Below the pieces are notes generated by a model. The model ran no database searches. It was given only the letters and a program-made list of their open reading frames with translations, and was not told the DNA's origin. A DNA stretch of 32,000 nt from Corynebacterium glutamicum ATCC 13032. GTDB taxonomy: Bacteria; Actinomycetota; Actinomycetes; Mycobacteriales; Mycobacteriaceae. The translations under genes were made by a program, and so were the position numbers. Location of the stretch: contig NC_003450.3 in the NCBI RefSeq assembly GCF_000011325.1, forward strand, positions 1,770,001 through 1,802,000, in the 5' to 3' direction. Shown piece by piece: positions 5,670 through 29,500 of this stretch; the stretch's first letter is position 1, and each line of letters starts with the position of its first letter.

Positions 5670-5675
5670 AAATTG

Positions 5676-5748: not shown

Positions 5749-5781
5749 ATGAACATTGATTAAAGAGGTTGTTCGTCCTCT

Positions 5782-5856: not shown

Positions 5857-5866
5857 CAGAACTGCG

Positions 5867-5937: not shown

Positions 5938-5978
5938 ATGGCATAAATTTGCCTTTAGGTACGTGGTAAACATACCAG

Positions 5979-6051
5979 AGCGGATGACGAGACTCGAACT
6001 CGCGACCCTCACCTTGGCAAGGTGATGCGCTACCAACTGCGCTACATCCGC
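5979..6051 (-). tRNA. tRNA-Gly (GCC), copy 2
   Basis: Identical in sequence to 5676-5748. Confidence 0.92.
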
Positions 6052-6084
6052 ATGAACATTGATTAAAGAGGTTGTTCGTCCTCT

Positions 6085-6159
6085 TGGTGCGCGATACTGG
6101 GATTGAACCAGTGACCTCTTCCGTGTCAGGGAAGCGCTCTCCCGCTGAGCTAAACGCGC
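6085..6159 (-). tRNA. tRNA-Val (GAC), copy 2
   Basis: Identical in sequence to 5782-5856, including the encoded CCA. Confidence 0.92.
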
Positions 6160-6192
6160 GGGACATTTCATCGATTGGCCCGGTGAAATGAG

Positions 6193-6265
6193 AGCGGATG
6201 ACGAGACTCGAACTCGCGACCCTCACCTTGGCAAGGTGATGCGCTACCAACTGCGCTACATCCGC
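6193..6265 (-). tRNA. tRNA-Gly (GCC), copy 3
   Basis: Identical in sequence to 5676-5748. Confidence 0.92.
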
Positions 6266-6612
6266 ATGCACTACTTAGAACTTGTTCCTGCTTGTTCCGT
6301 TCTGTGCGGTGCTGGAATAACTTTAGACCGAACGCTCCCTCGAACACAAATCCCCAAGTCAATGCCACAAAAGCACAGGTAAAACCCCTAGTGAAAACCC
6401 ACTTTCCAAATCACACGGATGTTATTTCGCAGGACAGCAAAGAAAACCTCGAATATTTGACCAATGCTCATCGCTCCAGATTCAGAAACGTGGTGACATC
6501 CGATTTCCATCTATTAGGTACAAGAATTTCTCTTCCATATAGAAGCTGGGTGAAAAATTGAACCGATTATGAATATTCAAAACTTCCGTGTTAACTTCTA
6601 AGCACACCGCAA

Positions 6613-6684
6613 GGTCCTATGGCTCAGTGGAAGAGCGTTCCGTTCACACCGGAAAGGTCGCTGGTTCGAACCCAGCTAGGACCA
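6613..6684 (+). tRNA. tRNA-Val (CAC); probable integration target at the prophage edge
   Basis: 72 nt: acceptor GGTCCTA/TAGGACC, anticodon stem-loop TTCCG-TTCACAC-CGGAA, T-loop TTCGAAC. The character of the sequence changes immediately downstream. Confidence 0.92.
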
Positions 6685-6692
6685 CTTGTTTA

Positions 6693-9508: not shown

Positions 9509-9550
9509 AATCTTCTTCCCTTAAAAAGTGTCGTTGTAACAAGGTATGAG

Positions 9551-10114
9551 CTAGCGACCGAACGCTTGGCCCATGACATCATCCATATCAAAGCCATCAT
9601 CTGGCTCTGACTGTGCTGGTTGCGCCGACTTTTGTTCTGGTTTTTGCTCCGGCTTCTGTGCCGGCTGTGGTGCTACCTGCTGCTTGGGTACTTTGGCCTC
9701 AACAACTGACTCCTCAACCGGCTGACTCTCCGCCTCGGCAACAAACTCATTTACCTGATCAGGTGCACGGGTTGTGGTCGATGGCGGTGCTATCTGCTGC
9801 GGTGCCTTCTTGCGTGTAGTCACAGCGTCTACGTCAGCAACCCCGGCCGCGAGCTGAGCAAAAAGATCACTACCCTCAGCCCCTGCCTGCAGGCTTTCCA
9901 CCAGCTTGAGGCCAATAACGGTAGCAACCTCTACATCACCGTATTCAGCGACAAACAAATAGATCAGCTGTCGCATCGCAAGCGAGATGCCACGAGCACC
10001 CTGTGTTTCCAAAAACCGCTCAACGATAGCGTCTGTTTCTGGGAAGCGCATACGCACATTACGCCACGGGGCATCGTCCTCTGATACATGTGTCGTGTCC
10101 TGTTTTTGAGCCAT
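9551..10114 (-). CDS. alpA: adaptor / centromere-binding partner of the actin-like protein
   Basis: Start placed at ATG 10114 (MAQKQDTTHV...). Compact N-terminal domain, low-complexity PQPAQKPEQKPEQK linker and acidic tail SEPDDGFDMDDVMGQAFGR. Lies 43 nt upstream of alpC in the same orientation. Confidence 0.75.
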   Translation of the reverse strand: MAQKQDTTHVSEDDAPWRNVRMRFPETDAIVERFLETQGARGISLAMRQLIYLFVAEYGDVEVATVIGLKLVESLQAGAEGSDLFAQLAAGVADVDAVTTRKKAPQQIAPPSTTTRAPDQVNEFVAEAESQPVEESVVEAKVPKQQVAPQPAQKPEQKPEQKSAQPAQSEPDDGFDMDDVMGQAFGR

Positions 10115-10169
10115 GTGTGACCCCCATTTCGTACATTGTGTCGGGAAGTTTCTCTTCAATAACTGCATT

Positions 10170-10500
10170 GTTTATGACTAACGTTATTGACTAATTTAAT
10201 AGTAACATAGAAGTGTCTTTTAAAAGACAATTAAAAAGCAATTAACGTACTTTTAAAAGGCACTTATGTGTCAATTAATAATTAACCCGTAAAAAACAAT
10301 TAATCGTTTCTTAAAGGGCTTTTAAACAACCACTAACAGCACAATCCCCTATGTACCGATAATCGACCGTTATCTGCCTTTTAAGGCACTTTTAACAAGC
10401 CCTTAAAACACGCCTAACGTGCACTTAAGCAGGCAGGTAATAAACCCCTAGCGGTCGATTAAATAACTATTTAATAGTTAACTAATGGAGCCCCACCATG
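10170..10500 (-). promoter_or_regulatory. AT-rich repeat array upstream of alpA (alpS/parC-like centromere plus promoter)
   Basis: Palindrome GTCTTTTAAAAGAC (10215-10228) and CTTTTAAAAG (10250-10259). Related TTTTAA(A/G)G-core units occur at about 10308-10330 and three times in 10375-10414. An 8-bp inverted repeat taactatt-t-aatagtta lies at 10464-10480. Confidence 0.6.
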
Positions 10501-10503
10501 ACA

Positions 10504-10905
10504 TCAACCTTTAATCTCCACCGCATTATTGAGTGCGATGCTGTAACCATCACCCCGAAAATGGCGCGCTCGAACATCGAGCTCGCTAGAAGAGGCGGCC
10601 TTACCTGCGACGGTGGAGCCGTAGCTATAACCAATCACAACTTTTCTTTGGTCTGGGTTGCGGGACTGTAGGGCTGTTTGAAACTTCTGAAGATCTTTCG
10701 CAGCGTGATTGGCCACTGCACCTGATACCGCAGTGGAGATAGAATTTGGTGCTTGATAACCCAACCACAGTACTGTTGCGGAATTGGTGGAAGTGGAAAC
10801 CGTGCGGGCGCGATCAGCGTGAAAAGGCAAATTTACGCCACAAGTTGGCCTAAAGGTAACACTCGCACGGGTACGCGGGCGCGCGCATAGGTATGCAGGA
10901 GACAA
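10504..10905 (-). pseudogene. remnant of an alpha/beta-hydrolase (DUF1023-like) gene
   Basis: Only the middle part, VLWLGYQAPNS...AAKDLQKFQTAL...VVIGYSYGSTVAGKAA, resembles the WLGYDAP...GHSYGS hydrolase core. The only start is a TTG flush against the upstream terminator, there is no RBS, and both ends diverge. Confidence 0.4.
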
Positions 10906-10948
10906 AAAGAAACCCCGCGACTGAGAGTTAGATCAGTCGCGGGGTTTC
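10902..10948 (-). terminator. rho-independent terminator of the GNAT gene
   Basis: gaaaccccgcgactga / tcagtcgcggggtttc hairpin, followed on the minus strand by tttcttttt. Confidence 0.75.
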
Positions 10949-11015
10949 CCGAATATAAACAATGAAGTTGCCGCTATGTCCGAACGGCAGGACGCAATAT
11001 CAAAGCCGGGAAGAG

Positions 11016-11585
11016 CTACAGCTCCACTCCCATCGTGTAAACAACAGGGCCACCCGGAACCTCTGATCGATGGGAGACCTTGAAGCCATGACGCTCGTAC
11101 AACGAAACATTGCTTTCAGCTGACGTCTCAAGCGATACCCGTCGATGATCAGACTCTGAAACACGCAGCAATGCTTCTTTGATGAGTGCAGAACCCAAGC
11201 CCCGCCCGGCAGATTCAGGTCGCACGCCAAGAGTCGCAAAATCCCAAGACGTATCGAGCCTTGGCGGAAGCACCAGACCGAATACCTCCTGGACACGATC
11301 GCCCATAATCTCAGCTATCTCAAGCTGAACACTTTCAGAAGGCTCAGGTGCATTAGGAGGAAGTAACGCAGCCACACCATCGCGATTTGGTGTTATCAAA
11401 ATCATGCCGTGCTGTAAAGCATGAGAGAGATAGATCGATTGAAGCCTCAACAATCGCGAGTCGTAATCCGCCTCGGGAAGGCACCATCTAGTCCAAGGAT
11501 AGGAAACAAAGGCTACGGCTAGGGTCGCAGCAGCCTCATCGATGTCGGCCTCCGTAGCCGACTGAACAACGTAATTCACAAGCAA
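11016..11585 (-). CDS. GNAT-family N-acetyltransferase
   Basis: Acetyl-CoA motif A region GVRPESAGRGLGSALIKEAL plus the C-terminal NVSLYERHGFKV. TTG/GTG start region at 11579-11585. Confidence 0.85.
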   Translation of the reverse strand: MLVNYVVQSATEADIDEAAATLAVAFVSYPWTRWCLPEADYDSRLLRLQSIYLSHALQHGMILITPNRDGVAALLPPNAPEPSESVQLEIAEIMGDRVQEVFGLVLPPRLDTSWDFATLGVRPESAGRGLGSALIKEALLRVSESDHRRVSLETSAESNVSLYERHGFKVSHRSEVPGGPVVYTMGVEL

Positions 11586-11923
11586 ACACTACCACAGCGA
11601 CTCTAGGAACTCGGGATCTTTCTGCAGGAAGCAGCAGGTAGCGGACTCGTCGCGCGGAACTGCGAAGCAGGACGCAACGCCTAGAAGAAGAATGGCAGCA
11701 GCTCTTGTCGGAAGCCTTCAGACAGCACGTGTGGCTACGGACTGTGTGGCTCGCGAATCCACAAGGAGAAGCAAAGGAGTGTTTTTACTTTAACAAAAGG
11801 TTGAGGGGTATTTTTTATGCTTTAATCAACCACAGATGTACAAGCCTTGCTGTGTATATTGTTCTGCTGTACTCAACCCCCACTTATTCACCGATATTTT
11901 TCCAGAAGAGGGCACACTACCCT

Positions 11924-12890: not shown

Positions 12891-15473
12891 TTAGTCAATA
12901 GTACCTTCGGCATCTGCACCGGTCTCTGCACCGGCCTCAGCATCATCTGGGAATCCAAGATCATCACCTGGGACCGTGATGCAGTCATTGCCGGTACCAG
13001 GGTTGCCGCCACCGCCAAAGGTTGTCGAAATACCAGTGTCCTTTTCGCCGATCCACCAGTTTCCGTTCTCACCGATGTGCGGGGTGAGACCATCCTTACC
13101 GTCAGTTCCGTTAGTACCGTTGGTGCCATCTCGTCCATGTGGAATGGTCACAGTGGAATGGTCACTGAATCGAATAGTGGTGAAACCAGGAGTCTCTTCA
13201 GTACCTATAACAGTGAGGCCCGATGCATTCGGTAGAGAATATGCCATTGGTGAACCTGTAGCGTAGAACACAACAGCACTATGTGGTGGAAGGGTGTAAT
13301 CATATTCTTCACCATTGATCGTTGCAGTAATGGTCTTGGGTTCATCACTAGTGTTGAAGACCACATCAGTGACACCCGCTACCGCCTCACCAACGGGGGT
13401 CGGGCTTGCAGAGACACCTGTATCGGTATCACCGATCCACCAGTTACCGTTGTCGCCAATGTGTGGTGTGAGGCCATCCTCACCAGGTGTTCCAGTGCCA
13501 CCCTGAGCTGGGATACCAGTATCCTTTTCACCGATGTACCAGTTACCGTTGTCACCAATAACAGTGTGCGGGATTTCATATTCAAATTGATCAAGAATGA
13601 TGATGGTGGCCTGGCCACCACCTGGATAACTCGATTCTCGGATCTCAATGTCCACATTACCGGAACCCTCGCCCGGAGCGCCCGTGTCACCAGTGTCACC
13701 CTTATCGCCCTTTGGACCCTGCGCCTTGACACCGGTATTTTCACCATTGATGTACCAGTAGCCATTAATGATCTCAACGGTGTTAGCACCGTTGGTTCCA
13801 TTTTCACCGTCTTGTCCATCGGCTCCGTTGGTGCCATTTTCACCAACTGCCTTGACACCGGTATTTTCACCATTGATGTACCAGTAGCCATTAATGATCT
13901 CAACGGTGTTAGCACCATCGGCTCCGTTGGCGCCATCCTGACCACGAGCAGGAACGCCGGTATCAACGATGCCGATCCACCAATTACCATTATCACCGAT
14001 GCGTGGGGTGTCACCGTCTTTACCGTCATTGCCACGTGCAGCAGTACAGGTGTTGTTCTCACCGATCCACCAGTTACCATCTGGGCCGATGTACGGGGTC
14101 AGTCCGTCCTTACCGTCTTCGCCGGTATCTCCCTTGTCGCCCTTCTCACCCTTGTTGATGGTGATTTCAGTGCCGTTCGAGAACACCACAACAGTGTTGC
14201 CGTCCGCATCGAAACGGGTTTCGATGACCGTAATGGACTCGCCATCTGCGCCATTACTTCCATCTTCACCATCGGCGCCAGCGTCACCCTTATCACCCTT
14301 ATTAATGGTAATAACAGTGCCATCGGAGAGCTCAACAAGAGTGTTGCCTTCAGCATCGTTGCTGGTGTTAACAACAGTAATTGATTCACCATCTGCGCCG
14401 TCTTCGCCATCGGCGCCAGCGTCACCCTTGTCGCCCTTCTCACCCTTGTTGATGGTCACATTGGAGCCATCGGAGAATTCGACAACAGTGTTGCCGTCCG
14501 CATCAACATAAGAGTTCTCCACAGTGATGCTGACTCCATCAGCACCGTCAGAGCCGTCAGCACCGTCCTTACCATCGGTACCCTTCTTTACAATGATCGT
14601 GGAACCATCGGAAAGCTCAACAACGGTGTCTCCATCATCGTTGATGTAGGTATCAGTTACGGTAAGGTCCTTACCGTCTTCGCCGTCCTTGCCGTCTTCT
14701 CCATCTTTACCGTCTTCACCCTTGTCGATAACAATGGTGGAACCGTCAGAGAACTCAACAACAGTATTACCTTCATCGTCGCGGTAAGTATTAACAATGG
14801 TGATAGCAGCGCCGTCTTTACCATTGGTGATGGTGATTTCAGAACCATCGGAAAAGACAACAATGGTATTGCCGTCATCATCAGTCTTAATCTCAGTAAT
14901 GGTGATCGAGGTACCATCTTGACCATCAACACCATTTTCACCATCAGTGCCACTGGAGCCACCCGCGAAGTCGAAGCCTTCCAGCCAGCAGTAGTCAACC
15001 AGTGCGATCAGGCCGGCAGTACCAGCAACAGCGCCGATAGCAGGGCCTGCAGTCTGGCCCACCTGTGCCGCCAGGTCATTCCATCCAGCCATGGTTCGTG
15101 CTGCTTCAGTGAGATCAATACCCTGCACAGCGTTCTGCTGTGGGCCGTGCACGCCGTTACCGAGGCCAATGTTGAGCGATTCAAGAGAGTTGTTGAACTG
15201 ATTGCTGAGATCCTGCCCAATGCGCTGTGCGTCAGACTGAATCTGGGACACCATATGCTGGAATTCTGGCTGCTGAGACAGCAGACCAACACCCACTGCT
15301 GCGCCTGCAACAAGCGGTGCAGCAGCACAAATGGCATCACGGGTGGAATCGGAGTTGGTAGTGTCATCCGCAACATCCTGTGCAGATGCCGCAGGAACAA
15401 TAGACAGACCCAGACCAGCAACAGTCAGCGCGGTAATAGAACGCGCAGAATTCTTCTTCAAATTAAGAGACAA
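12891..15473 (-). CDS. secreted collagen-like / tail-fibre-like repeat protein (860 aa)
   Basis: TTG start with GAAAGG RBS and signal peptide ...SIVPAASAQD. Seven units of G-x-D-G collagen-like triplets plus sITVxNtxxDaxGNTVVEFSDGSxxTInKG. Five P(H/R/Y)IGxxGNWWIGxxDTG units. Two ANTVEIINGYWYINGENTGVKA units. Confidence 0.85.
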   Translation of the reverse strand: MSLNLKKNSARSITALTVAGLGLSIVPAASAQDVADDTTNSDSTRDAICAAAPLVAGAAVGVGLLSQQPEFQHMVSQIQSDAQRIGQDLSNQFNNSLESLNIGLGNGVHGPQQNAVQGIDLTEAARTMAGWNDLAAQVGQTAGPAIGAVAGTAGLIALVDYCWLEGFDFAGGSSGTDGENGVDGQDGTSITITEIKTDDDGNTIVVFSDGSEITITNGKDGAAITIVNTYRDDEGNTVVEFSDGSTIVIDKGEDGKDGEDGKDGEDGKDLTVTDTYINDDGDTVVELSDGSTIIVKKGTDGKDGADGSDGADGVSITVENSYVDADGNTVVEFSDGSNVTINKGEKGDKGDAGADGEDGADGESITVVNTSNDAEGNTLVELSDGTVITINKGDKGDAGADGEDGSNGADGESITVIETRFDADGNTVVVFSNGTEITINKGEKGDKGDTGEDGKDGLTPYIGPDGNWWIGENNTCTAARGNDGKDGDTPRIGDNGNWWIGIVDTGVPARGQDGANGADGANTVEIINGYWYINGENTGVKAVGENGTNGADGQDGENGTNGANTVEIINGYWYINGENTGVKAQGPKGDKGDTGDTGAPGEGSGNVDIEIRESSYPGGGQATIIILDQFEYEIPHTVIGDNGNWYIGEKDTGIPAQGGTGTPGEDGLTPHIGDNGNWWIGDTDTGVSASPTPVGEAVAGVTDVVFNTSDEPKTITATINGEEYDYTLPPHSAVVFYATGSPMAYSLPNASGLTVIGTEETPGFTTIRFSDHSTVTIPHGRDGTNGTNGTDGKDGLTPHIGENGNWWIGEKDTGISTTFGGGGNPGTGNDCITVPGDDLGFPDDAEAGAETGADAEGTID
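13723..13916. repeat. tandem duplication, 126-bp period, inside the 860-aa gene
   Basis: The 68 nt at 13723-13790 are identical to 13849-13916 (gccttgacaccggtattttcaccattgatgtaccagtagccattaatgatctcaacggtgttagcacc). Confidence 0.9.
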
Positions 15474-15728: not shown

Positions 15729-16844
15729 TTAACCTGCGTTAACAAGCTCAGGGTCTTCTTCTACTTCGAGATCTGCATCAGTTTCAGTGTCGATCACACT
15801 ATCGTCGTCACCATCAACCTTTTCACTCTGTTCAGATGATCCAAGCCCAGAAGAGCCAGTTGGCTTTTCTGCCGCCACGTCACCATCTGCGTTGTCATCG
15901 GCATCAATGTCGCCACAGAAATCATCAGCGAGCACCGACAGCACAGCAAGGCCGGTAGCACCAGAGATCAACAACCCTGCATCAATATCCTTGGTCGCGT
16001 TGTAGAGCCACTGATCAAACTGGGGGTTGAGGCTTGGAAGATTGAACTGTGCACGCACATCTTCAACAACACGTGGGATCGCCGGTGCCACAGCGTTAGC
16101 AATAGCACCTGCAGCAGGAATTGCTGCCAGCAGCAACATCTTCGGGTTCAGCAGACACTGTGCCAGCTCATCGGTGGCACCCTTAGCTGGCGCTGGGATA
16201 GTGACCTCAGAACCATCGGAGAACACAATGGTAATGGAACCATCGTCATTGGCAATCTGATCGACAATGGTCGCGTTAGCGCCGTTCTCACCATCCTTGC
16301 CATTTTCACCATCAGCACCATCCTGGCCGTCTGAGCCATCGTTGCCGTCCTTACCGTTAGCAACAACAAGCACAGAGCCATCAGAGAACGTAATGACGAT
16401 ATTGCCGTTGGCGTCAGTCGCAGTAGACACCACAGTAGCGTCCTCGCCATCCTTGCCATCTTCACCATCCACACCGTCCTTAGCTGCAGGAATGGTGACG
16501 ACGGTGCCATCAGAGAAGGTGAGCTTGACATCACCATTGGACTCCGTAGCGACATCAACAATGGTTGCGTCCTTGCCGATCACACCATCTTGGCCATCGG
16601 TACCATCCTTGCCATCAACACCCGCCTTGAGGGTGACAAAAGTGCCGTCGGTGAAGTGGAAGGTGATGTCACCAGTCACTGGATCAACAACGGTGCGATC
16701 AAGGTTGACAACGTGAATCGGGGTACCAGCACCTACCTGCTGAGCCGTAGCTGGTGCCGCACCAACAGCAGCAACACCAGAGACACCGACTGCAACAGCG
16801 ACAGCAATGGATGCAAGACGACGAGAATTAAGCTTCAAAGACAT
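15729..16844 (-). CDS. secreted collagen-like repeat protein (371 aa)
   Basis: Signal peptide ending AAPATAQQ and an N-terminus MSLKLN paralogous to the MSLNLK of the 860-aa protein. DGxDGxDG plus ATIVDvatesnGdvkLTFSDGTVVTIPA-type units. Hydrophobic Cys-bracketed module and an acidic tail. Confidence 0.85.
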   Translation of the reverse strand: MSLKLNSRRLASIAVAVAVGVSGVAAVGAAPATAQQVGAGTPIHVVNLDRTVVDPVTGDITFHFTDGTFVTLKAGVDGKDGTDGQDGVIGKDATIVDVATESNGDVKLTFSDGTVVTIPAAKDGVDGEDGKDGEDATVVSTATDANGNIVITFSDGSVLVVANGKDGNDGSDGQDGADGENGKDGENGANATIVDQIANDDGSITIVFSDGSEVTIPAPAKGATDELAQCLLNPKMLLLAAIPAAGAIANAVAPAIPRVVEDVRAQFNLPSLNPQFDQWLYNATKDIDAGLLISGATGLAVLSVLADDFCGDIDADDNADGDVAAEKPTGSSGLGSSEQSEKVDGDDDSVIDTETDADLEVEEDPELVNAG

Positions 16845-16903: not shown

Positions 16904-18829
16904 CTACTTACTGGAACTAATGACGGAGCCGCCACCAAGACCGAACAGATTAAACAGCGGGAGAAGCAAATCAAGCAGCTTGGACAGCCAGTTTGTCGGC
17001 GTTGGCTTCGTGGTGATCTGTGAACCGTCCTCGTAGGTAATGGTCACTGAGCCGTTGTCGTTGGTAACTCGGGACACCTCTACCAGACCTTTACCGTCTG
17101 ACCCGTCTACGCCATCTGTGCCATTGACTCCATCTTTGCCGTCCTTACCGTCTGACCCATCAACACCGTTGCGCACAGTGAACTCAGTACCGTCAGAAAG
17201 AACATAGGTGATGTTGCCGTCCTCATCAGGGGTAGCAGATTCCAGCGTTAGGCCAGTACCATCAAGCCCGTCAAGACCATCTTTGCCGTCTTGACCAGCA
17301 TCAAGAGTAAACGTAGTGCCATCGGACAAGGTGACAGTCACCGTGCCGTCAGCATTGTCAACAACATCAATGGCGACAACACCGTCTCGGCCGTCTGAGC
17401 CATCAGACCCATCGTCACCGTCCTTGCCGTCATCAACAGAGGGGAGGTTGCCATCGCCATCGGTGATGTTGGGGCCAAACAAGCCATCACCGGAAAGCAG
17501 ATCGTCTGCGTGGCGATGTTTGTAGAGCTCACCCTCAGTGAAATAGTTATCCCTAGTGAACGCCCCCGCTGGTTCACCAACAGAACCTTGCACCTTATGT
17601 TCGAAGGTTTTACCAGGGCTAAATGGCTCTAGTGCTTCAATACCAGTCCAACTAAAGGAAATATCCGAAGGAATATTCTTAAACGTCGCTGTTGCTGTGG
17701 TCTTATCCGCTGAATACACAACGGTTGGTTCCCACGCAGCTACGTCGTACTCGGGAAATGCGGCAACAAATTCGTCATATTCAAATGAATTTTTGTAAGA
17801 ATAGCTGATCCTCGTCGATGTTTCCTCTACCCGAGGAACTTCCGAGAAAACGTCGAAATCCTCAAATCCACCTCCGGAACGTTCGCGTAAAGTGGCTCCG
17901 TCTGCGGCTGTGAAATTAAGTATCACGTCGCGTGTGGTGGGTGTGGTATTGACAAGCGCACCCCGGAATCCAGCACCGTTGTTATTGCTAATGACAACAT
18001 TGGCGTGCCCGACCACGACGCCAAGTGGAGCTGCGTATGCTAATGCGCCCATATCAACAGCTGGTGGTTGATTAATCTTCCAGTCTTGTTCACTTCGGAA
18101 ATGCGACACGGTCTGCGTAGACTTAACCCACGTGTGCTGGACAGTACTGATAATCCACGGGTGTCCAGCAACGCCGTAGCGGACTACCTTGTTCTCAACC
18201 TGACCCTCAGTCTTACCCACAGTCCAGTCTTGAATTGGTCGCTCACCCGTCTGCTGGGCGCTACTCACCCACCCGTACAGTTCCATATCAAGAGCTGCGG
18301 TGCGAGAAGTAGTGCCAGCATCCGAACTAAAGTTTGTCAACGTACCGCGCGTACCACCGTTGCTCACCAAAAGATCTGCGACACGAATACCTGCATCATT
18401 GCGTACAGGGACGGTGCGATCGTTTGAATTGAAAAACCGAAGTCCATCGCCGGTGAGATTAAAGACGTACTCATCCTCGGCAGTTGCTGAATCCGGGATC
18501 GAAAACTCCATCTGCAATCGCAGTTCACCCTTGGTGATGTCTCCTAGAAGCTCTTCACGCTTGTCGTTGTCACTGATACCCAGCTCAACCGGGTCAGAAA
18601 ATGACAGCCCGTTCAACGTATAAGAAACACTGGTCACAATACTGTCCGGCAACGTCGCAGCAGACGCAGTTGCCATACCAAACTGTGCCACATGATCAGA
18701 TGTCGCCACTGCCACACCGCCAATCGCCACAGTGGTGGCGAGCGCCAACGCAATAGGACGAGCAATCCGAGATCCCAGTACAAACTGAGGACGAACCCCT
18801 ACCTCTCGACCCTGTTTATTAAAAGTCAT
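16904..18829 (-). CDS. secreted protein with a large N-terminal globular region and C-terminal collagen-like repeats (641 aa)
   Basis: GAAGGTGG RBS and signal/anchor ARPIALALATTVAIGGVAVA. About 440 aa are non-repetitive. These are followed by DGKDGDDGSDG plus VTVTLSDGTTFTLDAG-type units and a hydrophobic tail LLDLLLPLFNLFGLGGG. Confidence 0.85.
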   Translation of the reverse strand: MTFNKQGREVGVRPQFVLGSRIARPIALALATTVAIGGVAVATSDHVAQFGMATASAATLPDSIVTSVSYTLNGLSFSDPVELGISDNDKREELLGDITKGELRLQMEFSIPDSATAEDEYVFNLTGDGLRFFNSNDRTVPVRNDAGIRVADLLVSNGGTRGTLTNFSSDAGTTSRTAALDMELYGWVSSAQQTGERPIQDWTVGKTEGQVENKVVRYGVAGHPWIISTVQHTWVKSTQTVSHFRSEQDWKINQPPAVDMGALAYAAPLGVVVGHANVVISNNNGAGFRGALVNTTPTTRDVILNFTAADGATLRERSGGGFEDFDVFSEVPRVEETSTRISYSYKNSFEYDEFVAAFPEYDVAAWEPTVVYSADKTTATATFKNIPSDISFSWTGIEALEPFSPGKTFEHKVQGSVGEPAGAFTRDNYFTEGELYKHRHADDLLSGDGLFGPNITDGDGNLPSVDDGKDGDDGSDGSDGRDGVVAIDVVDNADGTVTVTLSDGTTFTLDAGQDGKDGLDGLDGTGLTLESATPDEDGNITYVLSDGTEFTVRNGVDGSDGKDGKDGVNGTDGVDGSDGKGLVEVSRVTNDNGSVTITYEDGSQITTKPTPTNWLSKLLDLLLPLFNLFGLGGGSVISSSK

Positions 18830-21841: not shown

Positions 21842-22441
21842 ATGCTTTCAATTTGCGCAAAAATTGGATATTCGACGACAATTGCAGAAGTGGAAATGAA
21901 CTTCCGAAAGGGACAAACATATGGTATTTGCGGTGAAAACGGATCTGGAAAATCGACACTTCTTCGCACCCTGTGCGGGGAAATCCATCCAATTGACGGG
22001 TATGCAACTATAGATGACCAAAGTGTCACCGAACCAAGTTCTATCGGTAAAATTATAAAGATTTCTACCCCCGAATTCTATCCCGATATTTCAATTGGAG
22101 AGCACTTTAAGATACTGACTAAAACCACAAAGGTGGACTATGATGACGCCATTAAACGCTGGAATCTGGAAAAACTCCTTGAGAAATCACCTAATCGAGT
22201 ATCGAGCGGGCAGCAACAACGCAGCTTTCTAGCTTTACAATTGGGGGTGAAATGCGATGTGATTGTCTTGGATGAGCCGGAGAGGCATTTAGATTCTTTC
22301 TGGATAAGAATCCTATCGGAGGAACTGAAAGACCGAGCCAAAAGTGGTACGACTGTGATTTTAGCCAGTCATTCACAAGAGATTCTTAAAGTTTGTGACG
22401 AGGTAATCTCACTCGAAAGATATTTAAATGCAAATAAATAA
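21842..22441 (+). CDS. ABC transporter ATP-binding protein
   Basis: Walker A GENGSGKST, signature VSSGQQQR, Walker B VIVLDEP and H-loop ASHS. Confidence 0.9.
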   Translation: MLSICAKIGYSTTIAEVEMNFRKGQTYGICGENGSGKSTLLRTLCGEIHPIDGYATIDDQSVTEPSSIGKIIKISTPEFYPDISIGEHFKILTKTTKVDYDDAIKRWNLEKLLEKSPNRVSSGQQQRSFLALQLGVKCDVIVLDEPERHLDSFWIRILSEELKDRAKSGTTVILASHSQEILKVCDEVISLERYLNANK

Positions 22442-23429
22442 AGTGATCAAATTTGCAATACTGTTGGCTGTTGTCTTAGGTATTTCGTTTTCAACGGTGT
22501 CGTGGGTTTTTGATCAATACAAATTGAATGCAAATGATTACTCCCCGATATCTTCATTTGTCTGGAATCTGATATTCATCATAGGTTTATCGACTCTAGT
22601 AGAAAAATTTCTACCGCTCCTATCAATCTCAAAACTAGAGTGGATATATCATGTGAGACCCTTAGGCCAATTGTCTTTTGGTCGGTTTAGCCCAATCTTG
22701 CAACTGAGTGTATTCGCTCTCTTTGGACTTCTTGTTGGTGCTGCGAATGGGCATTTTTGGATATGGCTCATGATCAGCCTCTTAGCTAGACTAGTCACAG
22801 GCCTTTTTAAGAGAAAATCAATTCCAAATCTTCTTTCTGCAGGTAGAAGAAAAATTTTGTCGGAAGCCAGCCTTAACGTTTTGGATTCTGCACTAGTCGC
22901 AGATAGCACAACAGTCGCTCATCTAAAATGGATAGACCGACCCCCCACCGGAAACTACCTCATACTCACTTTTAGAAGATTTTTAAGAAGACCCCATATC
23001 GCTTTGACAATGCTAGTGGTCATCTCTTTCACATTCTCTTTTTCCAATGTTTTTGGAAATTTTACCCCTTGCTTATTTTTCCTACTGTGGTCCATTTTAG
23101 GTGCCGATGTGGCGCGGTGCGCAGACTTCTCTAAGCTAAAAGGACCAAACCACCTTAAAGTCGTGACTCTTATTGTGCATGGGTTATTCGCGCTAGCGAT
23201 CATGCTAATAATCACAGGGACAATCCAAATGCTGCCCTACGGGATTTTAATACTGCCAAGCATTCTTTGGACAGGAATAGTCAGAAGTCGAGCGAGGAGA
23301 GTAGATCAAATCACCTATATAGACAGCGGCGTTATAGGCCCAATTTCCCCAGAAATCATCAAGTTCTATTTATCAGGTTTACTACCGACTGTAGTAGTGT
23401 CAATTATTATTGTTTCCCTACTAAATTAA
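22428..23429 (+). CDS. polytopic membrane protein, putative permease/immunity partner of the ABC ATPase
   Basis: Overlaps the ATPase gene by 14 nt. The translation shows at least 6 hydrophobic helices. Confidence 0.75.
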   Translation: MQINKVIKFAILLAVVLGISFSTVSWVFDQYKLNANDYSPISSFVWNLIFIIGLSTLVEKFLPLLSISKLEWIYHVRPLGQLSFGRFSPILQLSVFALFGLLVGAANGHFWIWLMISLLARLVTGLFKRKSIPNLLSAGRRKILSEASLNVLDSALVADSTTVAHLKWIDRPPTGNYLILTFRRFLRRPHIALTMLVVISFTFSFSNVFGNFTPCLFFLLWSILGADVARCADFSKLKGPNHLKVVTLIVHGLFALAIMLIITGTIQMLPYGILILPSILWTGIVRSRARRVDQITYIDSGVIGPISPEIIKFYLSGLLPTVVVSIIIVSLLN

Positions 23430-23547
23430 CCCCTAAAGGGGTAATCCACTACCAGTAATTTCTACTTTCAAATACAAATCCTTTGAGCCATGTTAATTTG
23501 ATGATGCCAATACATGGCAACCCCAACTCAAGACAGGAAAACCAAAA

Positions 23548-23703
23548 ATGGTTAATATCAATCGATACACATCTACTAACTCCATTGCATCAGACGCTGG
23601 GAAACCAGCAGACGGTCGCACCACACCAACTACTGTTTCTTCTGTAATTTGCACTGAAACTATCGCCTACACTGTCACTGCTACCATCACAATCGGTTGC
23701 TAG
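23548..23703 (+). CDS. RiPP precursor peptide (51 aa)
   Basis: Not in the ORF track. AGGAAA lies 7 nt before ATG 23548 and the gene ends in a double stop TAGTAG. Peptide: MVNINRYTSTNSIASDAGKPADGRTTPTTVSSVICTETIAYTVTATITIGC. The last 27 aa hold 10 Thr, 2 Ser and 2 Cys, and the final residue is Cys. It sits 10 nt upstream of the kinase gene. Confidence 0.7.
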   Translation: MVNINRYTSTNSIASDAGKPADGRTTPTTVSSVICTETIAYTVTATITIGC

Positions 23704-23713
23704 TAGGCTACAA

Positions 23714-24823
23714 ATGAACCGCCCCCTTCAAAGTCAAAATTTTTCAATAACCAGCGAATGGGCAAATGCCACGTTCAACGATATCGAAGACTCTTTGGAG
23801 GGGTCTTTTGACATCGAACCAGGCCAATACATTGGACGCGGAGAATACTTCGTAGCTACTTCTGGAACGGGTTCCAAAAAGTTTATCAAGGTGGTTTTGG
23901 GTGACGGTATCGATAGCGAACTAAATCGTCGCATCGAAGGTGAAATTCTTGCAAGTAGTCTCCATCTTCCATCCACAGACCTAATCTCTCCTGTCGTAAT
24001 TCAGTATGTGAAAGAGTCTTCTAATTTTCCCGGTGACTTCTACATCGTGTCCGACTTCAAAGACGACACAGAAACTTTAGAGCTATCTAAGGCTTCTCTA
24101 CCCCTCACTGACTTAGCCAAGATCGGAGCGTTTCTCTTTCGTTTGGAATCTGTAACAGTTCCCCCTCAAAATCCTGCAAGGCGAGCAATGGATGTTTTGG
24201 ATGGACTTTCTCTTCTTGCAAATAAAGGCAACATTGAAACAGGCGCACAATTAACAAAAGGAACTATACAAGCTCTTGAAATCATTAATCAAGAAGCGAC
24301 CAACATCGAGAATGCACTTGAAAAAGTAACTAAAGTAGGATCACGGAAGTTTTTCTCGCATGGAGATCTTAAATTTTCTCAGTTCTTAATTAATGGTGAA
24401 ACCGGAAAGATTTTCCTATGTGACTGGGAAGAATGCGGTAGTGCACATTTCGCAAATGACCTATGTTTTCTCGCAGGTGATTTGTTCTATAGCACAATTC
24501 GGGAACTGGTGGATACCAACATCAAAAACATTAAAGGCTCCTCGATCATTCAGGAAGCCTACGATAATGCAACGCTTGAGGCTGTATCAAAAGTAAATGC
24601 AATATTAACTGGCTATTCCTCAGAGAGGGGTTACTCTCTCACCTCGGACGAAAAACGAATCATTAGTATCAGAATCGGATTGGCTGGTCTATTTCGACTT
24701 TACACTGTGAGCGCTAAATCTAATGAGTTACGCCCGCGCGAATTAGCCTTAGCCTCCATCGGAATGCAAATTACTTTAGGTCAAGCACCCAATCTGGTGT
24801 TTACAGATAGCAAGGTGGTTTAA
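23714..24823 (+). CDS. APH/choline-kinase-fold phosphotransferase (Ser/Thr-peptide kinase candidate)
   Basis: Gly-rich loop plus Lys in IGRGEYFVATSGTGSKKFIKV. Catalytic loop FSHGDLKFSQFLIN and metal-binding CDWEECG. Confidence 0.8.
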   Translation: MNRPLQSQNFSITSEWANATFNDIEDSLEGSFDIEPGQYIGRGEYFVATSGTGSKKFIKVVLGDGIDSELNRRIEGEILASSLHLPSTDLISPVVIQYVKESSNFPGDFYIVSDFKDDTETLELSKASLPLTDLAKIGAFLFRLESVTVPPQNPARRAMDVLDGLSLLANKGNIETGAQLTKGTIQALEIINQEATNIENALEKVTKVGSRKFFSHGDLKFSQFLINGETGKIFLCDWEECGSAHFANDLCFLAGDLFYSTIRELVDTNIKNIKGSSIIQEAYDNATLEAVSKVNAILTGYSSERGYSLTSDEKRIISIRIGLAGLFRLYTVSAKSNELRPRELALASIGMQITLGQAPNLVFTDSKVV

Positions 24824-25624
24824 GTGAGGAATTTGCACGAAACGATAGACAAGATCAAAAACTCAATGGTCTTTTTAAATGATCAAACCTTTACGATACC
24901 ACCGTATACAGGGCATCCAGAAACAGAAAACGTCCATGTAACTTCGCTGGAAGCCAATTCGGTACTGGCTAGTTATATTTATTCTCAATATCATGCCCGA
25001 GCAACAGAAGTAATTCCTCTTACAACCAAGCTTGACATAGTTCGCTTTCTCAGAGCTGATCCATATCTCATGGGCCTTTCGGGAGATCCGAATCAAGAAC
25101 AAGCGATACCGAAAATGTCATTAGTCCGATCGCCTGGATTCGTCCACAGTTTTGGAAATCGTAAGTGGGTTCAACCAAAAAAATCAATAGGCAGAATTTA
25201 CATGTCCGCGAAAAACGCGGTAGAGCGAACCGAAATATTTTTAGCTACTTTACAAATCGCTGAGAATAGCAATCTAATATTTCAGGGGAAAACTAGTTGG
25301 AACACATCCCTCCTGCGGACTGATGATATTGTATTCTACTTTCCGTTGGAATCTCATTTCTCGGAAGCACAAAGGCTGATCAAAAAATTTTTACCCTTTC
25401 GATCAGATGACGGCTTAGTTGAATCATTCTTTACTTCCTATTTGGCACCAGGTGTGAGTAAAGCTGTTGAAGTCCCAACTGCTAAGAACAATGGGCTCAG
25501 TTTTGGTATGGAATGGTCCACCATTTGCGCCCAACTAATAATCGAAGAATTTTCAGGAAAATCCGTCACGATCGCAGAAAAACTATCCGAATGGGGTATT
25601 CCTCAGAAGGAGGCCCACGCATAA
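24824..25624 (+). CDS. HopA1-like phospho-Ser/Thr lyase candidate
   Basis: GTG start directly after the kinase stop. The segment GRIYMSAKNAVERTEIFLATLQ...FQGKT...LRTDDIVFYFP matches my recollection of the R-x-Y-x-N / K / R-x-D-x-x-V-x-Y pattern of HopA1-family proteins. This needs HMM confirmation. Confidence 0.55.
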   Translation: MRNLHETIDKIKNSMVFLNDQTFTIPPYTGHPETENVHVTSLEANSVLASYIYSQYHARATEVIPLTTKLDIVRFLRADPYLMGLSGDPNQEQAIPKMSLVRSPGFVHSFGNRKWVQPKKSIGRIYMSAKNAVERTEIFLATLQIAENSNLIFQGKTSWNTSLLRTDDIVFYFPLESHFSEAQRLIKKFLPFRSDDGLVESFFTSYLAPGVSKAVEVPTAKNNGLSFGMEWSTICAQLIIEEFSGKSVTIAEKLSEWGIPQKEAHA

Positions 25625-26184
25625 TGACCAAAGTTACGAATGTGTCTTGGTTAGTAACAGGTTCAATGTCGGCCCTATCAATACCGGGTCTAATTTTCTC
25701 ACTTCGCTCATCACATCCTAACCTTAATTTCACTCCCTATCTAACACAAAGCGCAAGTCGAATCGTCACTATGACCAGTATGGCCACGCTAAGTGGAGTG
25801 ACTCCTAGAAATAGTGACTGGGGGTCAGAACCAGAGGCTACACCCAGCCACATTCAAATCGAATCAGAGTCAGATGCATATCTGATTGCCCCAGCGACCC
25901 TTGATTTTCTAGCTCGCTTTGCGCGTTATGATTGTTCGACCCCTTTCTCCCTTGCTCTTCAATGTACGAAAAAGCCAATTCTCGTAGCACCGTCCTTGCC
26001 GCCTGGGGGGAAAGATTCAATAGCATATAAGTCACTAAGCATGGACCTCTTAAAGTGGGAGAATTTACGGTTATTGAGTCCTATCGAAACTAAAAGTGCT
26101 TCTTCCCCAAACGCATCGTCATCCGGCTTCGGATCTGCCACACGATTAATCGAATTCATGTTAGAAAACCTACAGGGTACTTAG
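25624..26184 (+). CDS. HFCD-family flavoprotein, EpiD/LanD-type peptidyl-cysteine decarboxylase
   Basis: The ATG overlaps the previous stop (TAATG). VSWLVTGSMSA (compare the EpiD N-terminal FMN loop), PYLTQSASRIV, the active-site His context PSHIQIE, and AYLIAPATLDFLARFA (compare ILVLPASANTINKIA). The PxMNxxMW motif is divergent (VAPSLPPGG). Confidence 0.8.
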   Translation: MTKVTNVSWLVTGSMSALSIPGLIFSLRSSHPNLNFTPYLTQSASRIVTMTSMATLSGVTPRNSDWGSEPEATPSHIQIESESDAYLIAPATLDFLARFARYDCSTPFSLALQCTKKPILVAPSLPPGGKDSIAYKSLSMDLLKWENLRLLSPIETKSASSPNASSSGFGSATRLIEFMLENLQGT

Positions 26185-26185
26185 A

Positions 26186-27052
26186 GTGAAAAAAGTTTTT
26201 CAAAATGAAATGCGCACAATTTGGCAAAGAGATTCGGCCAATGATCAAGAACCGTGGTCCGAGATCCGTCGGTACTCTCCTGCAAATGGAAAACTTCCTC
26301 GCTTACCCGAGCAACTTCCTCAAGAAAACAGTTCGATCTATTGGGGTCAATCGGAAGATTTCACATTTAAAATCGGCACTTTGATTGATGAATCATTCTG
26401 GAGTGGTATTAACAAAAAAGCAATCAGTATGACCGATGATGACAAGAGTAAGCTTATTTTGAACTACTCAGAGAAAGCTATTAGTGCTTTCTCTGAGTTC
26501 TCTACTAGCGCCCACTGTCGATATCTGCCGGTTTTTGCACAGTACATCCATCATCTACCAAGAGATCTTCGAGAATTAAAAGAACTCCTGTTGGATAGCC
26601 ATGTGCGCTGTGTATTTGAGGACGCTAACCTATCAGTCTCCTCAATATTCAAAGACATCCAGTCTTTTGAAGATTACTCTAAAAAGTCTCATCGAATAGT
26701 TCATGGTTGTTTTCGATTTAGAAATATAGGTTTCTCAGGCAATGGCAAACTGCTCGTAATCTCCGGGGATGATCTAATCTACGGGTCTGAAATATTTATA
26801 CAAGCTGCGATGCTGGCTGATCTATTTGAGCTAAGTTCCTCCAAAGTCGTTGCTGTAAACAAATCAATGTTCGTTATGTATCAAACCTTCACTCAAAACA
26901 AGGACAGTTTTTATGTAAATAAATTAAACAGATTTACCTTCCTCTACCTAATCTCCCACTATGTACAATTTCTTTTTACCTACAAAAAATCTTTTCCTAA
27001 GAGACTTCTCTCGGAGGCAACGCTACTGAGATTCAACGGGCCTGTCATTTAG
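26186..27052 (+). CDS. kinase-fold-like protein lacking the catalytic Asp (pseudokinase/scaffold candidate)
   Basis: The GTG start is separated from the HFCD stop codon by a single nucleotide. HGCFRFRNIGF...LLVISGDDLIYG aligns with the HGDxxxxN...D pattern, but with Cys in place of Asp. No clear Gly-rich loop. Confidence 0.55.
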   Translation: MKKVFQNEMRTIWQRDSANDQEPWSEIRRYSPANGKLPRLPEQLPQENSSIYWGQSEDFTFKIGTLIDESFWSGINKKAISMTDDDKSKLILNYSEKAISAFSEFSTSAHCRYLPVFAQYIHHLPRDLRELKELLLDSHVRCVFEDANLSVSSIFKDIQSFEDYSKKSHRIVHGCFRFRNIGFSGNGKLLVISGDDLIYGSEIFIQAAMLADLFELSSSKVVAVNKSMFVMYQTFTQNKDSFYVNKLNRFTFLYLISHYVQFLFTYKKSFPKRLLSEATLLRFNGPVI

Positions 27053-27181: not shown

Positions 27182-27772
27182 ATGTCTGAATACTTACCAC
27201 TCGCGCAACACGTGCTCTCCCAGCGCACGCAGCCGTGGCCAGAAGGGTCTTTTCATGTGCCACTGACAGGACACAGATCACAGTCTTTGCCCGGTGGCTA
27301 CGACAGCCATCCGTTTCAACATGGACTCTACCAACGCTAATACGGCATCATGGAGCGAGGCCTTAGCAAGCACAACCGCTTTGTGCTGCACTCGCATGGC
27401 ACTGGGCGCCGACACAGTGTCGGTGCAGATGCGGTGTGGGCGTACGTCATTACAGCGTTGAAGCAAGCTTATCTGGGTCGGTTCTCTTTTGTTGCTGAGG
27501 CACTACTGTTAACACAGCCAAACCAGTGGCCGGCTCACGCGCAACAACAATGGCAGCAACTGGTACTACAAGCCGATCATGCCAATCTCTACAGCGAGAT
27601 TTATCATCCCAGCGTGCTCATGAAGCGCAACACCGGCATAATTGCTGCTGCTGATCTCGTGCTTGCTGTGATTAACAAGAATGCCACCACCGGTGGCACG
27701 GCACACACTGTTCGGGAAGCAGAAACCATGAGAAAGCAGGTCTTTAGGATTCACCCAGCAGGTCTGGTCTAA
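27182..27772 (+). pseudogene. SLOG-superfamily (YpsA/DUF1273-like) gene interrupted by an in-frame TAA
   Basis: GAAGG RBS plus ATG 27182. The two ORFs 27140..27340 and 27350..27772 share one frame, separated by TAA at 27338-27340. Joined motifs: PLTGHRSQSLPGGYD, GADAVWA, LQADH, MKRNTGIIAAADLVLAV, TTGGTAHTV. Confidence 0.5.
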
Positions 27773-29073: not shown

Positions 29074-29500
29074 GCTGTTATCTCCGATTTCTGAGGTCAG
29101 TACGCGCTCCTGTCTAACTTCTACCACCCAGCCCAACCAATCGTTTTTCAAGGGTTCACCGAAGCAACTGTTGAGCACCTCATGCAGGTCATTGAGACGC
29201 TTGATCCCGATCAGCGCGCAGCGGTGCTCGCTGCAGCGATACCGCGCGAGGCTAAGATCCTGGGGCGAAAAGTAACTCTTCGCCCTGGTTGGGGCAATAT
29301 GCGCGTACACGTCGTGATTGCAGTTATCTTTATCAAGTTTTTGCAACCGGATCTTCGCCAGGCGCTGCTAACAACAGGTGATGCCGTACTTGTCGAAGAT
29401 GATACCTGAGGCGCCTTCTGGGGCGTCGATTCGCGCACCAGAAAAGGCGACAAACACCTCGATAAAGCACTCATGACTGTCTGTGAAATTCTGCACAACG
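29074..29500 (+). pseudogene. NADAR (YbiA/DUF1768)-domain gene remnant with two in-frame TGA codons and no start codon
   Basis: A single frame reads VISDF*GQYALLSNFYHPAQPIVFQGFTEATVEH...IPREAKILGRKVTLRPGW...IKFLQPDLRQALLTTGDAVLVEDDT*GAFWGVDSRTRKGDKHLDKALM. TGA at 29092-29094 and 29407-29409. This parallels E. coli YbiA: INFY..YGDFSNF..SEHYFQA..RMGR..W..AKF..L..T....LVEHT..D.YWG.G...G.N.LG..LM. Confidence 0.55.

Follow-up and report, generated by a model that had tools for sequence, protein, structure and literature searches.

A conserved 51-codon gene in the CGP3 prophage region of Corynebacterium glutamicum as probable precursor gene of a minimal, kintamdin-like cassette of the class V lanthipeptide type

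What is encoded by a short, threonine-rich open reading frame (ORF) that lies just ahead of a kinase gene at the left end of the prophage CGP3 region of Corynebacterium glutamicum ATCC 13032? The window, by which we mean the whole stretch of 32,000 nucleotides analysed here (NC_003450.3, positions 1,770,001 to 1,802,000 of the forward strand, with all coordinates below counted from its first letter), contains this ORF at 23548-23703 (+). A sequence-only reading had proposed that it encodes the precursor peptide for the adjacent enzymes, namely a kinase, a HopA1-like lyase and an HFCD flavoprotein, and this proposal is supported by the ORFs found in orthologous cassettes, by the enzyme families and by the register of the core motif. 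We consider, with a probability of about 0.82, that the ORF is the precursor gene of a peptide that is ribosomally synthesized and then modified post-translationally (RiPP), KinA-like or class Va LanA-like, and that it stands first in a translationally coupled A-K-Y-D-X operon (precursor, kinase, lyase, flavoprotein and cyclase partner) within CGP3, behind an ATP-binding cassette (ABC) exporter pair.

The ORF begins with the ATG at 23548, comprises 51 codons and has the product MVNINRYTSTNSIASDAGKPADGRTTPTTVSSVICTETIAYTVTATITIGC. Its stop codon TAG (23701-23703) is followed by a second in-frame TAG (23704-23706), and the kinase ATG at 23714 lies 10 nt past the first of the two. A Shine-Dalgarno-like AGGAAA (23535-23540, +), as read from the sequence, stands 7 nt upstream of the start codon. 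The C-terminal 27 residues include 10 Thr and two Ser, as well as Cys35 and Cys51, and this core half contains an alternating stretch, T42-V-T44-A-T46-I-T48. The ORF with its AGGAAA, the TAGTAG, the 10-nt gap, the two Cys and the 12 Ser/Thr had all been described in the sequence-only reading, and each was confirmed. The adjacent kinase is present, identical at every residue, in BX927147.1, the chromosome of C. glutamicum ATCC 13032, at about 1.795 Mb, and cassette proteins go under C. glutamicum names in public sources. In its genomic position between cg1904 and cg1905 the ORF is absent from the gene calls of BX927147 (L011 in our set of loci); at least one further assembly lists its product as a hypothetical protein (NII96608.1).

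Only two close homologous cassettes were found, one on a 7-kb read-archive contig (L018) and one in C. timonense (L020 and L021, two Corynebacterium chromosomes, LT629765.1 being that of C. timonense). On L018 the order is ABC, permease, a gap, kinase, lyase, flavoprotein and a 284-aa protein, with the ABC ATPase at the matching position and a 348-aa counterpart of the permease; the L020/L021 cassette consists of kinase, lyase, flavoprotein and a 292-aa protein amid insertion sequence (IS) elements. Checked for a conserved short ORF, both cassettes proved to have one of exactly 51 codons, ending in GC-stop, 1-2 nt ahead of the kinase ATG, and the ribosome-binding sites of these two ORFs (GAAAGG and GGGAAAGG) have the same spacing as AGGAAA in C. 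glutamicum. The orthologous peptides are MVEFDRYTSSKAISSDTSTSAEGRTTPTTISSPVCADTVAYTVTITASIGC in L018 and MADINRYTSTKSIAEDARQADDGRTTPTTVSSWICTEAASYTVTITASLGC in L021. Aligned three ways (C. glutamicum, L018 and L021), the peptides require no gap and are invariant at 24 of 51 positions, which include R6-Y7-T8-S9, I13, D16 and G23-R24 in the leader and T25, T26, P27, T28, T29, S31, S32, C35, Y41-T44, T46, G50 and C51 in the core. The peptide is in fact the best conserved gene product of the cassette, with 55-69% identity vs 33-50% for the enzymes.

The pattern of nucleotide substitution is that of a coding sequence read in the sense direction: differences number 23, 31 and 33 at codon position 3 vs 4, 7 and 6 at position 2, and the ratio of nonsynonymous to synonymous differences (pN/pS) has its minimum in the sense frame (0.28-0.52), which is also the sole frame free of stops in all three loci. 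Within the species, about 420 C. glutamicum contigs contain the exact peptide. In the seven assemblies checked, the DNA of the cassette was identical or two single-nucleotide polymorphisms apart; polymorphism of the region is therefore uninformative, being near zero across the assemblies compared. Judged from these comparisons, the 51-codon ORF is a real, conserved and mostly unannotated gene. An antisense ORF of 53 codons (23493-23654, -) overlaps it and is likewise open in the orthologous loci, with a conserved stretch VVGVVRPS. It was rejected as a true gene by frame-by-frame substitution analysis, which identified it as a mirror-frame by-product of the Thr-rich sense ORF.

The four genes downstream of the ORF abut or overlap by one base, and the enzyme families that had been assigned to the kinase, the lyase and the flavoprotein hold. 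The first, cg1905 (23714-24823, +), encodes a Ser/Thr kinase of 369 aa, of the LanK/KinD type, whose best NCBIfam model is NF038156, "class V lanthionine synthetase subunit LxmK" (2e-20, residues 37-355 of 369). The sole PDB match of its family profile is 9dk1_A, "Kinase" (chain A of 9DK1-3), and this chain is LxmK (rosin paper, PMC12291118). R42, K59, D218, Q223 and D237 of the kinase are invariant in the three orthologues and spaced as are Arg49, Lys66, Asp221, Gln226 and Asp241 of LxmK, which are the ATP, catalytic and Mg residues of that enzyme (PMC12291118). The product of cg1906 (24824-25624, +; 266 aa) is a HopA1-like phospho-Ser/Thr lyase of the LanY/KinC type, matching PF17914 at 1.6e-8 (35.1 bits, above the 22.7-bit cutoff) and, as a profile, PDB 9dk1_B, "Lyase" (LxmY), at 3.5e-23. 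Its invariant residues R124, K156, R165 and Y172 resemble, by spacing rather than by alignment with CaoY, R187, K219, R229 and Y236 of CaoY, which matter by mutagenesis (PMC9486802). A truncated, 140-aa version of the lyase in the L001 strain was rejected as a difference between gene callers, the DNA being identical.

The HFCD flavoprotein, of the LanD/KinI type, is encoded by cg1907 (25624-26184, +; 186 aa) and matches PF02441 at 39.5 bits (cutoff 22.7). Its best NCBIfam model is the CypD family RiPP decarboxylase (2.7e-16), and its PDB matches include CypD (6jdd, 9.3e-11, with a common PATLD motif) as well as 6jls and 7cfu, with the conserved His aligned; it is thus closest to the RiPP cysteine decarboxylases of the CypD and TvaF types. 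The last gene, cg1908 (26186-27052, +), encodes a putative degenerate kinase homologue of 288 aa, a candidate for the LanX/KinH-type cyclase partner. This protein matches nothing in Pfam, NCBIfam or PDB, whether searched as a sequence or as a profile, and the model libraries include no curated LanX model; its UniRef name is "Aminoglycoside phosphotransferase domain-containing protein". Its H173-G174-C175 aligns with the H-G-D catalytic loop of the kinase (hhalign, 25 columns, E = 0.066), a profile of eight LanK-type kinases aligns with the same HG-C175 loop (E = 0.013-0.03, one comparison), and a weak similarity (E = 0.001) connects it to the protein in the LxmX position of a bona fide class V cluster. 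LanX proteins lack the catalytic Asp and the Mg ligands of a kinase and have conserved Glu, His and Asp residues for cyclisation; in the 288-aa protein Cys175 takes the place of the catalytic Asp, and an acidic residue is present at 215. His258 is invariant and is also found in the LxmX-position protein of locus L025, which has Asp where the C. glutamicum protein has Gln261. Since degenerate kinases beside an HFCD have been described for KinH and TvaE (PMC9415263) and for LxmX and RosX (PMC12291118), and the gene order around the 288-aa protein matches in L018 and L021, position and weak sequence evidence together indicate that it is probably a kinase-fold cyclase partner of the LanX/KinH type. 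A LANC_like domain (Pfam) is absent from all cassette proteins.

The peptide itself may be compared with a proven precursor. KinA-like precursors have the signature S-S/T-X-X-C-Xn-T-X4-C, formed by S7, S8, C11, T22 and C27 of a 27-residue core, and carry 3-5 Thr ahead of the signature Ser (PMC9415263). A cut after Arg24, which we take as the putative cleavage site, divides the C. glutamicum peptide into a leader (residues 1-24; 23548-23619, +) and a core, TTPTTVSSVICTETIAYTVTATITIGC, encoded together with the stop at 23620-23703 (+). This core has 27 residues, with S7, S8, C11, T22 and C27 in the exact KinA register (S7-S8-x-x-C11 ... T22-x4-C27). In precursor numbering, the signature residues S31-S32-V-I-C35 ... 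T46-I-T-I-G-C51 are kept in all three orthologues, and four Thr before the signature (T25, T26, T28 and T29, within TTPTTV) are invariant as well. The KinA core, as we reconstructed it from the structure description and the mutagenesis primers of PMC9415263, reads I-T-T-T-V-T-S-S-E-I-C-V-S-L-V-S-A-S-V-T-A-T-W-D-S-x-C, and the C. glutamicum core is identical to it, without a gap, at 11 of 27 positions. The KinA homologues retrieved by BLASTP in that study (Supplementary Table 12, PMC9415263) include WP_155860843.1, a 59-aa protein of C. timonense (44/61% identity/positives), which, judged by organism and size, is very probably the L021 peptide read from an upstream start. The word "glutamicum" is absent from the supplement of the kintamdin paper (PMC9415263), and no Corynebacterium appears in the accessible portion of the supplementary files of the rosin paper (PMC12291118), including its Table S1 of 151 class Va clusters without N-methyltransferase genes. 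Within the literature searched, no description of the C. glutamicum cassette as a RiPP cluster was found.

Kintamdin of Streptomyces sp. RK44, a beta-bithionin, is made with a kinase (KinD), a HopA1 lyase (KinC), an inactive kinase homologue (KinH) and an HFCD (KinI) (PMC9415263). The same four enzyme types are found in the cassette, when compared by type and not directly with KinC, KinD, KinH and KinI, with a KinH counterpart assigned on weak alignments; the 27-residue core, its Thr-rich N-terminus and the identical signature register complete the likeness. The cassette differs in that it lacks the KinE/F metallopeptidases, the KinJ F420H2 reductase and the KinO methyltransferase, in its leader (24 residues ending in DGR, vs 30 ending in DAPA in KinA), and in its setting, a Corynebacterium host and a low-GC island inside a prophage region.

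The chemical steps, the cleavage site and the role of the transporter, as we infer them, would be the following. The N-terminal ~24 residues would act as the leader, whose invariant RYTS...I would be bound by the kinase-lyase pair. The cg1905 kinase would phosphorylate Ser and Thr of the core and the cg1906 lyase would eliminate the phosphate, giving dehydroalanine (Dha) and dehydrobutyrine (Dhb) at up to 12 sites. The two would work as a complex that is recruited through the leader, by analogy with the reconstituted pairs CaoK/CaoY (in vitro) and KinD/KinC (in E. coli; PMC9415263). The cg1907 flavoprotein would convert the C-terminal Cys51 to an enethiol by oxidative decarboxylation, and the cg1908 pseudokinase would steer this enethiol onto Dhb46 (core position 22, or -5), closing a ring of the S-aminovinyl-3-methylcysteine (AviMeCys) type; the invariant Thr46, at position -5, is the most likely acceptor for decarboxylated Cys51. 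Control of the enethiol attack by the partner protein has been reported for RosX in vitro (PMC12291118) and for KinH together with KinI in E. coli (PMC9415263). Cys35 (core position 11) would enter a second thioether, either a lanthionine (Lan) to Dha31 or Dha32, or the bis-thioether MAbi with Ser31, which would become a beta-enamino acid. The sequence-only reading had suggested a lanthionine or methyllanthionine here; as the partner in Ser-Ser-x-x-Cys would be a Dha, it would be the former and not the latter, unless Cys35 joins the bis-thioether. In KinA, a C11A exchange abolishes all cyclisation. The fully processed C. glutamicum core (12 dehydrations, -CO2 -H2) would have a mass M of 2484.23 for T25-C51, or of 2640.33 with Arg24 still attached. 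Neither D-Ala nor D-Abu is expected because there is no reductase gene, and a free N-terminus is expected because there is no methyltransferase gene. The leader would be removed near Gly23/Arg24 by a protease from outside the cassette. That Gly-Arg invariantly precedes the core suggests that a host or secreted protease makes the cut, and host proteases often remove RiPP leaders. The ABC pair would serve in export of the product or in immunity.

Several observations weigh against this assignment. The peptide matches no precursor model of Pfam or NCBIfam, LxmA-like_leader included, even at E <= 10. The kinase reaches 73 bits with the LxmK model vs an equivalog cutoff of 315 bits, and with Pfam APH (PF01636) it falls just under the cutoff (21.7 vs 23.2 bits). 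The LanX/KinH assignment depends on weak alignments (E about 0.001-0.07), and a single-sequence AlphaFold model of the 288-aa protein was unusable (pLDDT, the predicted local distance difference test, of 31). No leader protease, reductase or methyltransferase domain is present in the cassette or in the larger ORFs of the 32-kb window, and L018 and L020/L021 have no peptidase domain either; kinA-like ORFs are reported always to co-occur with KinE/F peptidases (PMC9415263), of which there are none here. Finally, CGP3 is under xenogeneic silencing by CgpS (PMC5137423), and the product may rarely be made.

The strongest alternative leaves the precursor assignment intact and competes with the kintamdin-type outcome. 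It holds that the product is a plain class Va lanthipeptide, with Lan formed under substrate control from Dha31 (or Dha32) and Cys35, AviMeCys from Dhb46 and Cys51, the other Thr as Dhb, and neither beta-enamino acid nor bis-thioether; we would give it somewhat less than an even chance. Lexapeptide (LxmK/Y/X/D), cacaoidin (CaoK/Y/X/D) and the rosins (RosK/Y/X/D) share with the cassette a stand-alone kinase of putative APH type, a HopA1 lyase, an HFCD and a candidate LanX, with no LanC, and indeed the minimal class Va set is described as LanK, LanY, LanD and LanX without LanC (PMC12291118). The best model of the kinase is LxmK, with catalytic and ATP/Mg residues as in that enzyme, and the precursors have in common the leader Tyr, the (S/T)2-x-x-Cys and the C-terminal Thr-x4-Cys. 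In class Va peptides the motif (Dhx)2-X-X-Cys has been reported to cyclise spontaneously to Lan (PMC12291118). The differences from class Va are that the enzymes here are very divergent (for the kinase, 73 vs 315 bits), that the gene order is A-K-Y-D-X, that tailoring enzymes and an M16 protease are missing from the cassette, and that the peptide does not match the LxmA-like leader models.

The nearest enzyme relatives that could be retrieved also belong to class V clusters, with precursors of the LxmA-like leader type. An exhaustive HMMER search of 1.84 billion representative proteins with the lyase brought up, besides the lyase itself, three relatives at E <= 1e-3; it took this search to reach the two closest (38-39% identity), which were traced to the DNA of L018 and of L020/L021. 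Next come lyase relatives of 24-28% identity, which lie in Nocardiaceae clusters of canonical class V composition. These clusters encode LxmK, which at 326 bits exceeds the cutoff, along with a methyltransferase, HopA1, one or two precursors of the LxmA-like kind and a luciferase-like reductase, and further a flavoprotein, a 296-aa protein without a family, an M16 peptidase and an ABC transporter. The precursor sequences close with ...TTAELGC or similar, and among the four that were translated two end in GC and two in SC, all with Thr at -5. Aligned with the corynebacterial peptides, they share the leader Tyr, a hydrophobic residue at Tyr+6, the TT.P start of the core, the internal Cys, the Thr at -5 and the terminal Cys. 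None of the three orthologous peptides matched the LxmA-like leader models PF28162 and NF038146; what they share with LxmA-like leaders is confined to the Tyr and the hydrophobic residue six positions on. A fully conserved leader Tyr at -17 is reported for the class V type-A precursors (PMC9486802), and Tyr7 of the C. glutamicum peptide would occupy -17 or -18 according to where the leader is cut.

Against a plain class Va product one may set the collinearity of the core with KinA, including the Thr-rich stretch, and the retrieval of the C. timonense homologue by BLASTP with KinA; the sequence is compatible with either direction that the cyclase partner may give to Cys35. The layout (S/T)(S/T)-x-x-C ... 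T-x4-C, which cacaoidin and the LxmA-like precursors have as well, is common to both groups and therefore does not discriminate between the outcomes. The Thr-rich extension and the KinA collinearity lean towards kintamdin, the retrievable enzyme relatives towards class Va, and for Cys35 the odds between Lan with AviMeCys and the kintamdin bis-thioether would be roughly even.

Two further systems should be compared. The linaridin cypemycin is similar in its flavoprotein (best match CypD, with PATLD), in a Thr-rich core that ends in Cys and in its AviCys-type chemistry; it differs from the cassette, which has no genes of the CypH or CypL type, would dehydrate by means of kinase and lyase, and has a leader end (KPADGRTTP) without the PxxxTP motif. 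With the thioamitides (TvaC/D/E/F as minimal AviMeCys synthetase) the cassette shares the logic of kinase, HopA1 lyase, candidate pseudokinase and HFCD for a C-terminal AviMeCys, and its HFCD matches 6jls; there are, in contrast, no YcaO/TfuA or other thioamitide tailoring genes among the window ORFs scanned. The cassette is most probably a kintamdin-like member within the class V lanthipeptide type of machinery, with unusually divergent enzymes and a minimal gene set, and no new kind of chemistry or system is revealed.

One may also consider that the cassette, although intact, is a silent passenger of a cryptic prophage, its precursor neither matured nor exported and without function at present. 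No gene for a protease, a reductase or a methyltransferase was seen in the cassette or the larger ORFs of the window, C. glutamicum is missing from the clusters listed in an antiSMASH survey of prophages in actinobacteria, and ATCC 13032 serves as a bacteriocin-sensitive, apparently non-producing host. Against this stand the integrity of all six ORFs, virtually identical in hundreds of assemblies, the purifying selection on the peptide across three hosts, and the fact that RiPP leaders are often cleaved by host proteases. The low-GC island is of the type bound by the CgpS silencer (PMC5137423, PMC7002338), whereas the transcripts of cg1905 and cg1906 respond to pH (PMC2807442). On balance we consider a silent passenger unlikely. 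That the ORF is a chance or non-coding feature, either part of the 5' untranslated region of the kinase operon or the shadow of a true antisense gene, is hardly credible: the missing annotation in BX927147, the lack of any protein-family match and an antisense ORF of 53-67 codons that is open in all three loci speak for it, and are outweighed by the agreement of three cassettes, with enzymes only 33-50% identical, in the length of the ORF, its start context, the place of its stop and its ribosome-binding site, by a sense frame that has the lowest pN/pS and is uniquely stop-free, by an antisense mirror frame with stops in two of three sequences and with varying ORF lengths and starts, and by a motif register that matches an experimentally proven precursor.

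Returning to the RiPP operon, two transporter genes precede the precursor gene. The ABC transporter ATPase (cg1903 by position; 21842-22441, +) matches PF00005 ABC_tran at 5.2e-23 and overlaps by 14 nt with the gene for a 333-aa membrane protein, the permease cg1904 (22428-23429, +), which has several hydrophobic segments and no Pfam family. In an earlier transcriptome study cg1904 is named an ABC permease, cg1905 a "putative protein kinase" and cg1906 a "putative protein phosphatase", the latter two being treated as one co-regulated, pH-responsive transcription unit (PMC2807442). Current records label cg1908 as hypothetical and, in some cases, cg1907 as a CoA-pathway enzyme. In the 118-nt gap before the ORF no promoter- or terminator-like site was detected, a result that, with a scan consensus of the E. 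coli type, is weak evidence for corynebacteria. A weak hairpin, A-CCCC-TAAA-GGGG-T (23429-23442, +), follows the permease stop codon (23427-23429), and it had been suggested that it could tune the stoichiometry of the peptide. This function is not supported: although the hairpin (cccc-taaa-gggg, 23430-23441) appears in both the minimum free energy and the centroid folds, its stem has only 4-5 bp and no U-tract follows, and the intergenic RNA does not stand out from its shuffles (z = -1.18; 22 of 200 shuffles fold equally well).

How did such a cassette come to lie in CGP3? Its G+C content is lower than that of its surroundings in each of three hosts: 41.7 vs 50.3% in C. glutamicum (21842-27052), 43.4 vs 53.4% in L018 (127-5355) and 50.3 vs 70.5% in C. 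timonense (L021, 8730-12255). Transposase or IS genes flank it in L018 and L020/L021. Together, the low G+C in three hosts and the flanking genes point to horizontal transfer from a donor of lower G+C. Relatives were searched for in several collections. Word-based homology searches with the peptide or the lyase alone returned self only. Megablast with the cassette gave nothing in E. coli genomes or plasmids, and neither did tblastn with the lyase in GenBank phages or PLSDB plasmids. Scanning IMG/VR with the kinase, its alignment or that of the peptide gave no match either, and the alignments of lyase and peptide found none in JGI metagenomes. With no relatives in the phage, plasmid, IMG/VR and JGI collections, the cassette is rare and no widespread module of phages or plasmids; it looks like rare mobile cargo that landed in CGP3 rather than a module of the phage.

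A scan of GTDB genomes returned only a distant archaeal locus (L017, JALDRC010000003.1, a metagenome-assembled genome of a Nitrososphaeraceae archaeon), in which 8436-11854 encodes an APH-type kinase of 371 aa followed by a 797-aa fusion protein, which is HopA1-like lyase in its N-terminal part and LanC-like, with the motifs WCHG and CHG, in its C-terminal part. The arrangement resembles that of a split lanthipeptide synthetase, here in a thaumarchaeon. At another locus, L027 of Streptomyces sp. NPDC001594 (3377-7969), a gene for a 43-aa peptide ending in ...FGTREVC is followed by genes for a flavoprotein, for a LanC-like protein in opposite orientation, for an APH kinase and for a HopA1 lyase. 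A LanC-like gene and an HFCD flavoprotein gene are combined in this locus. The LANC_like domain is carried by both L017 and L027.

The remainder of the window shows how the cassette is embedded. The left part contains thrS and genes for a Dyp peroxidase, PCuAC and CopC, as well as a tRNA array. The array comprises seven tRNA genes (5675-6685), of which Gly-GCC, Val-GAC, Cys-GCA, Gly, Val and Gly are read from the minus strand and Val-CAC from the plus strand. It separates the CopC-like gene from the first genes of the prophage and may mark the prophage attachment region. An ORF of 257 aa that overlaps the array (5498-6271, -) was rejected as spurious. At 8099-10168 (-) a 469-aa protein (8099-9508) with a weak match to the actin-like ALP_N is followed by a 205-aa protein; the two are consistent with the AlpC/AlpA pair with which prophage CGP3 starts. 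Three large, repeat-rich ORFs of 860, 371 and 641 aa lie on the minus strand (12891-15473, 15729-16844 and 16904-18829). Their matches to DUF4988, collagen-repeat and atypical-Rib are weak, and they could be surface or tail-fibre-like prophage proteins. On the 3' side of the cassette there are a 140-aa protein with a sub-threshold YpsA/SLOG match (27350-27772) and, at about 29182-29409 according to the L001 gene calls, a small NADAR-domain ORF; no link of either to the RiPP genes was seen.

As for annotation, a gene is missing between cg1904 and cg1905, and the labels of cg1905-cg1908 are those given above. Among industrial bacteria, C. glutamicum ATCC 13032 is one of those studied most thoroughly; it serves for the production of bacteriocins as a host supposed to be free of them, and it carries the cassette intact. 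The locus also provides an example of RiPP biosynthesis in a prophage region, in the form of a low-GC mobile island that is common to C. timonense. Being a tractable, minimal set of K, Y, D and X from outside Streptomyces, it could serve as a model for the way in which the cyclase partner chooses between AviMeCys/Lan and the kintamdin bis-thioether. A more far-reaching reading, which we offer as a speculative one, is that a stripped-down, mobile kintamdin/class V machinery has become prophage cargo and makes a novel Dhb-rich scaffold (from 10 Thr, the ring pattern being set by a very divergent pseudokinase cyclase), and that the product serves the phage-host unit. As part of that same doubtful reading, the product might, for example, kill non-lysogenic corynebacteria or exclude phages rather than act as an antibiotic of the Streptomyces type. 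Should this be true, a pathway to a natural product that had gone unnoticed would be missing from the C. glutamicum production strains engineered to be free of prophages.

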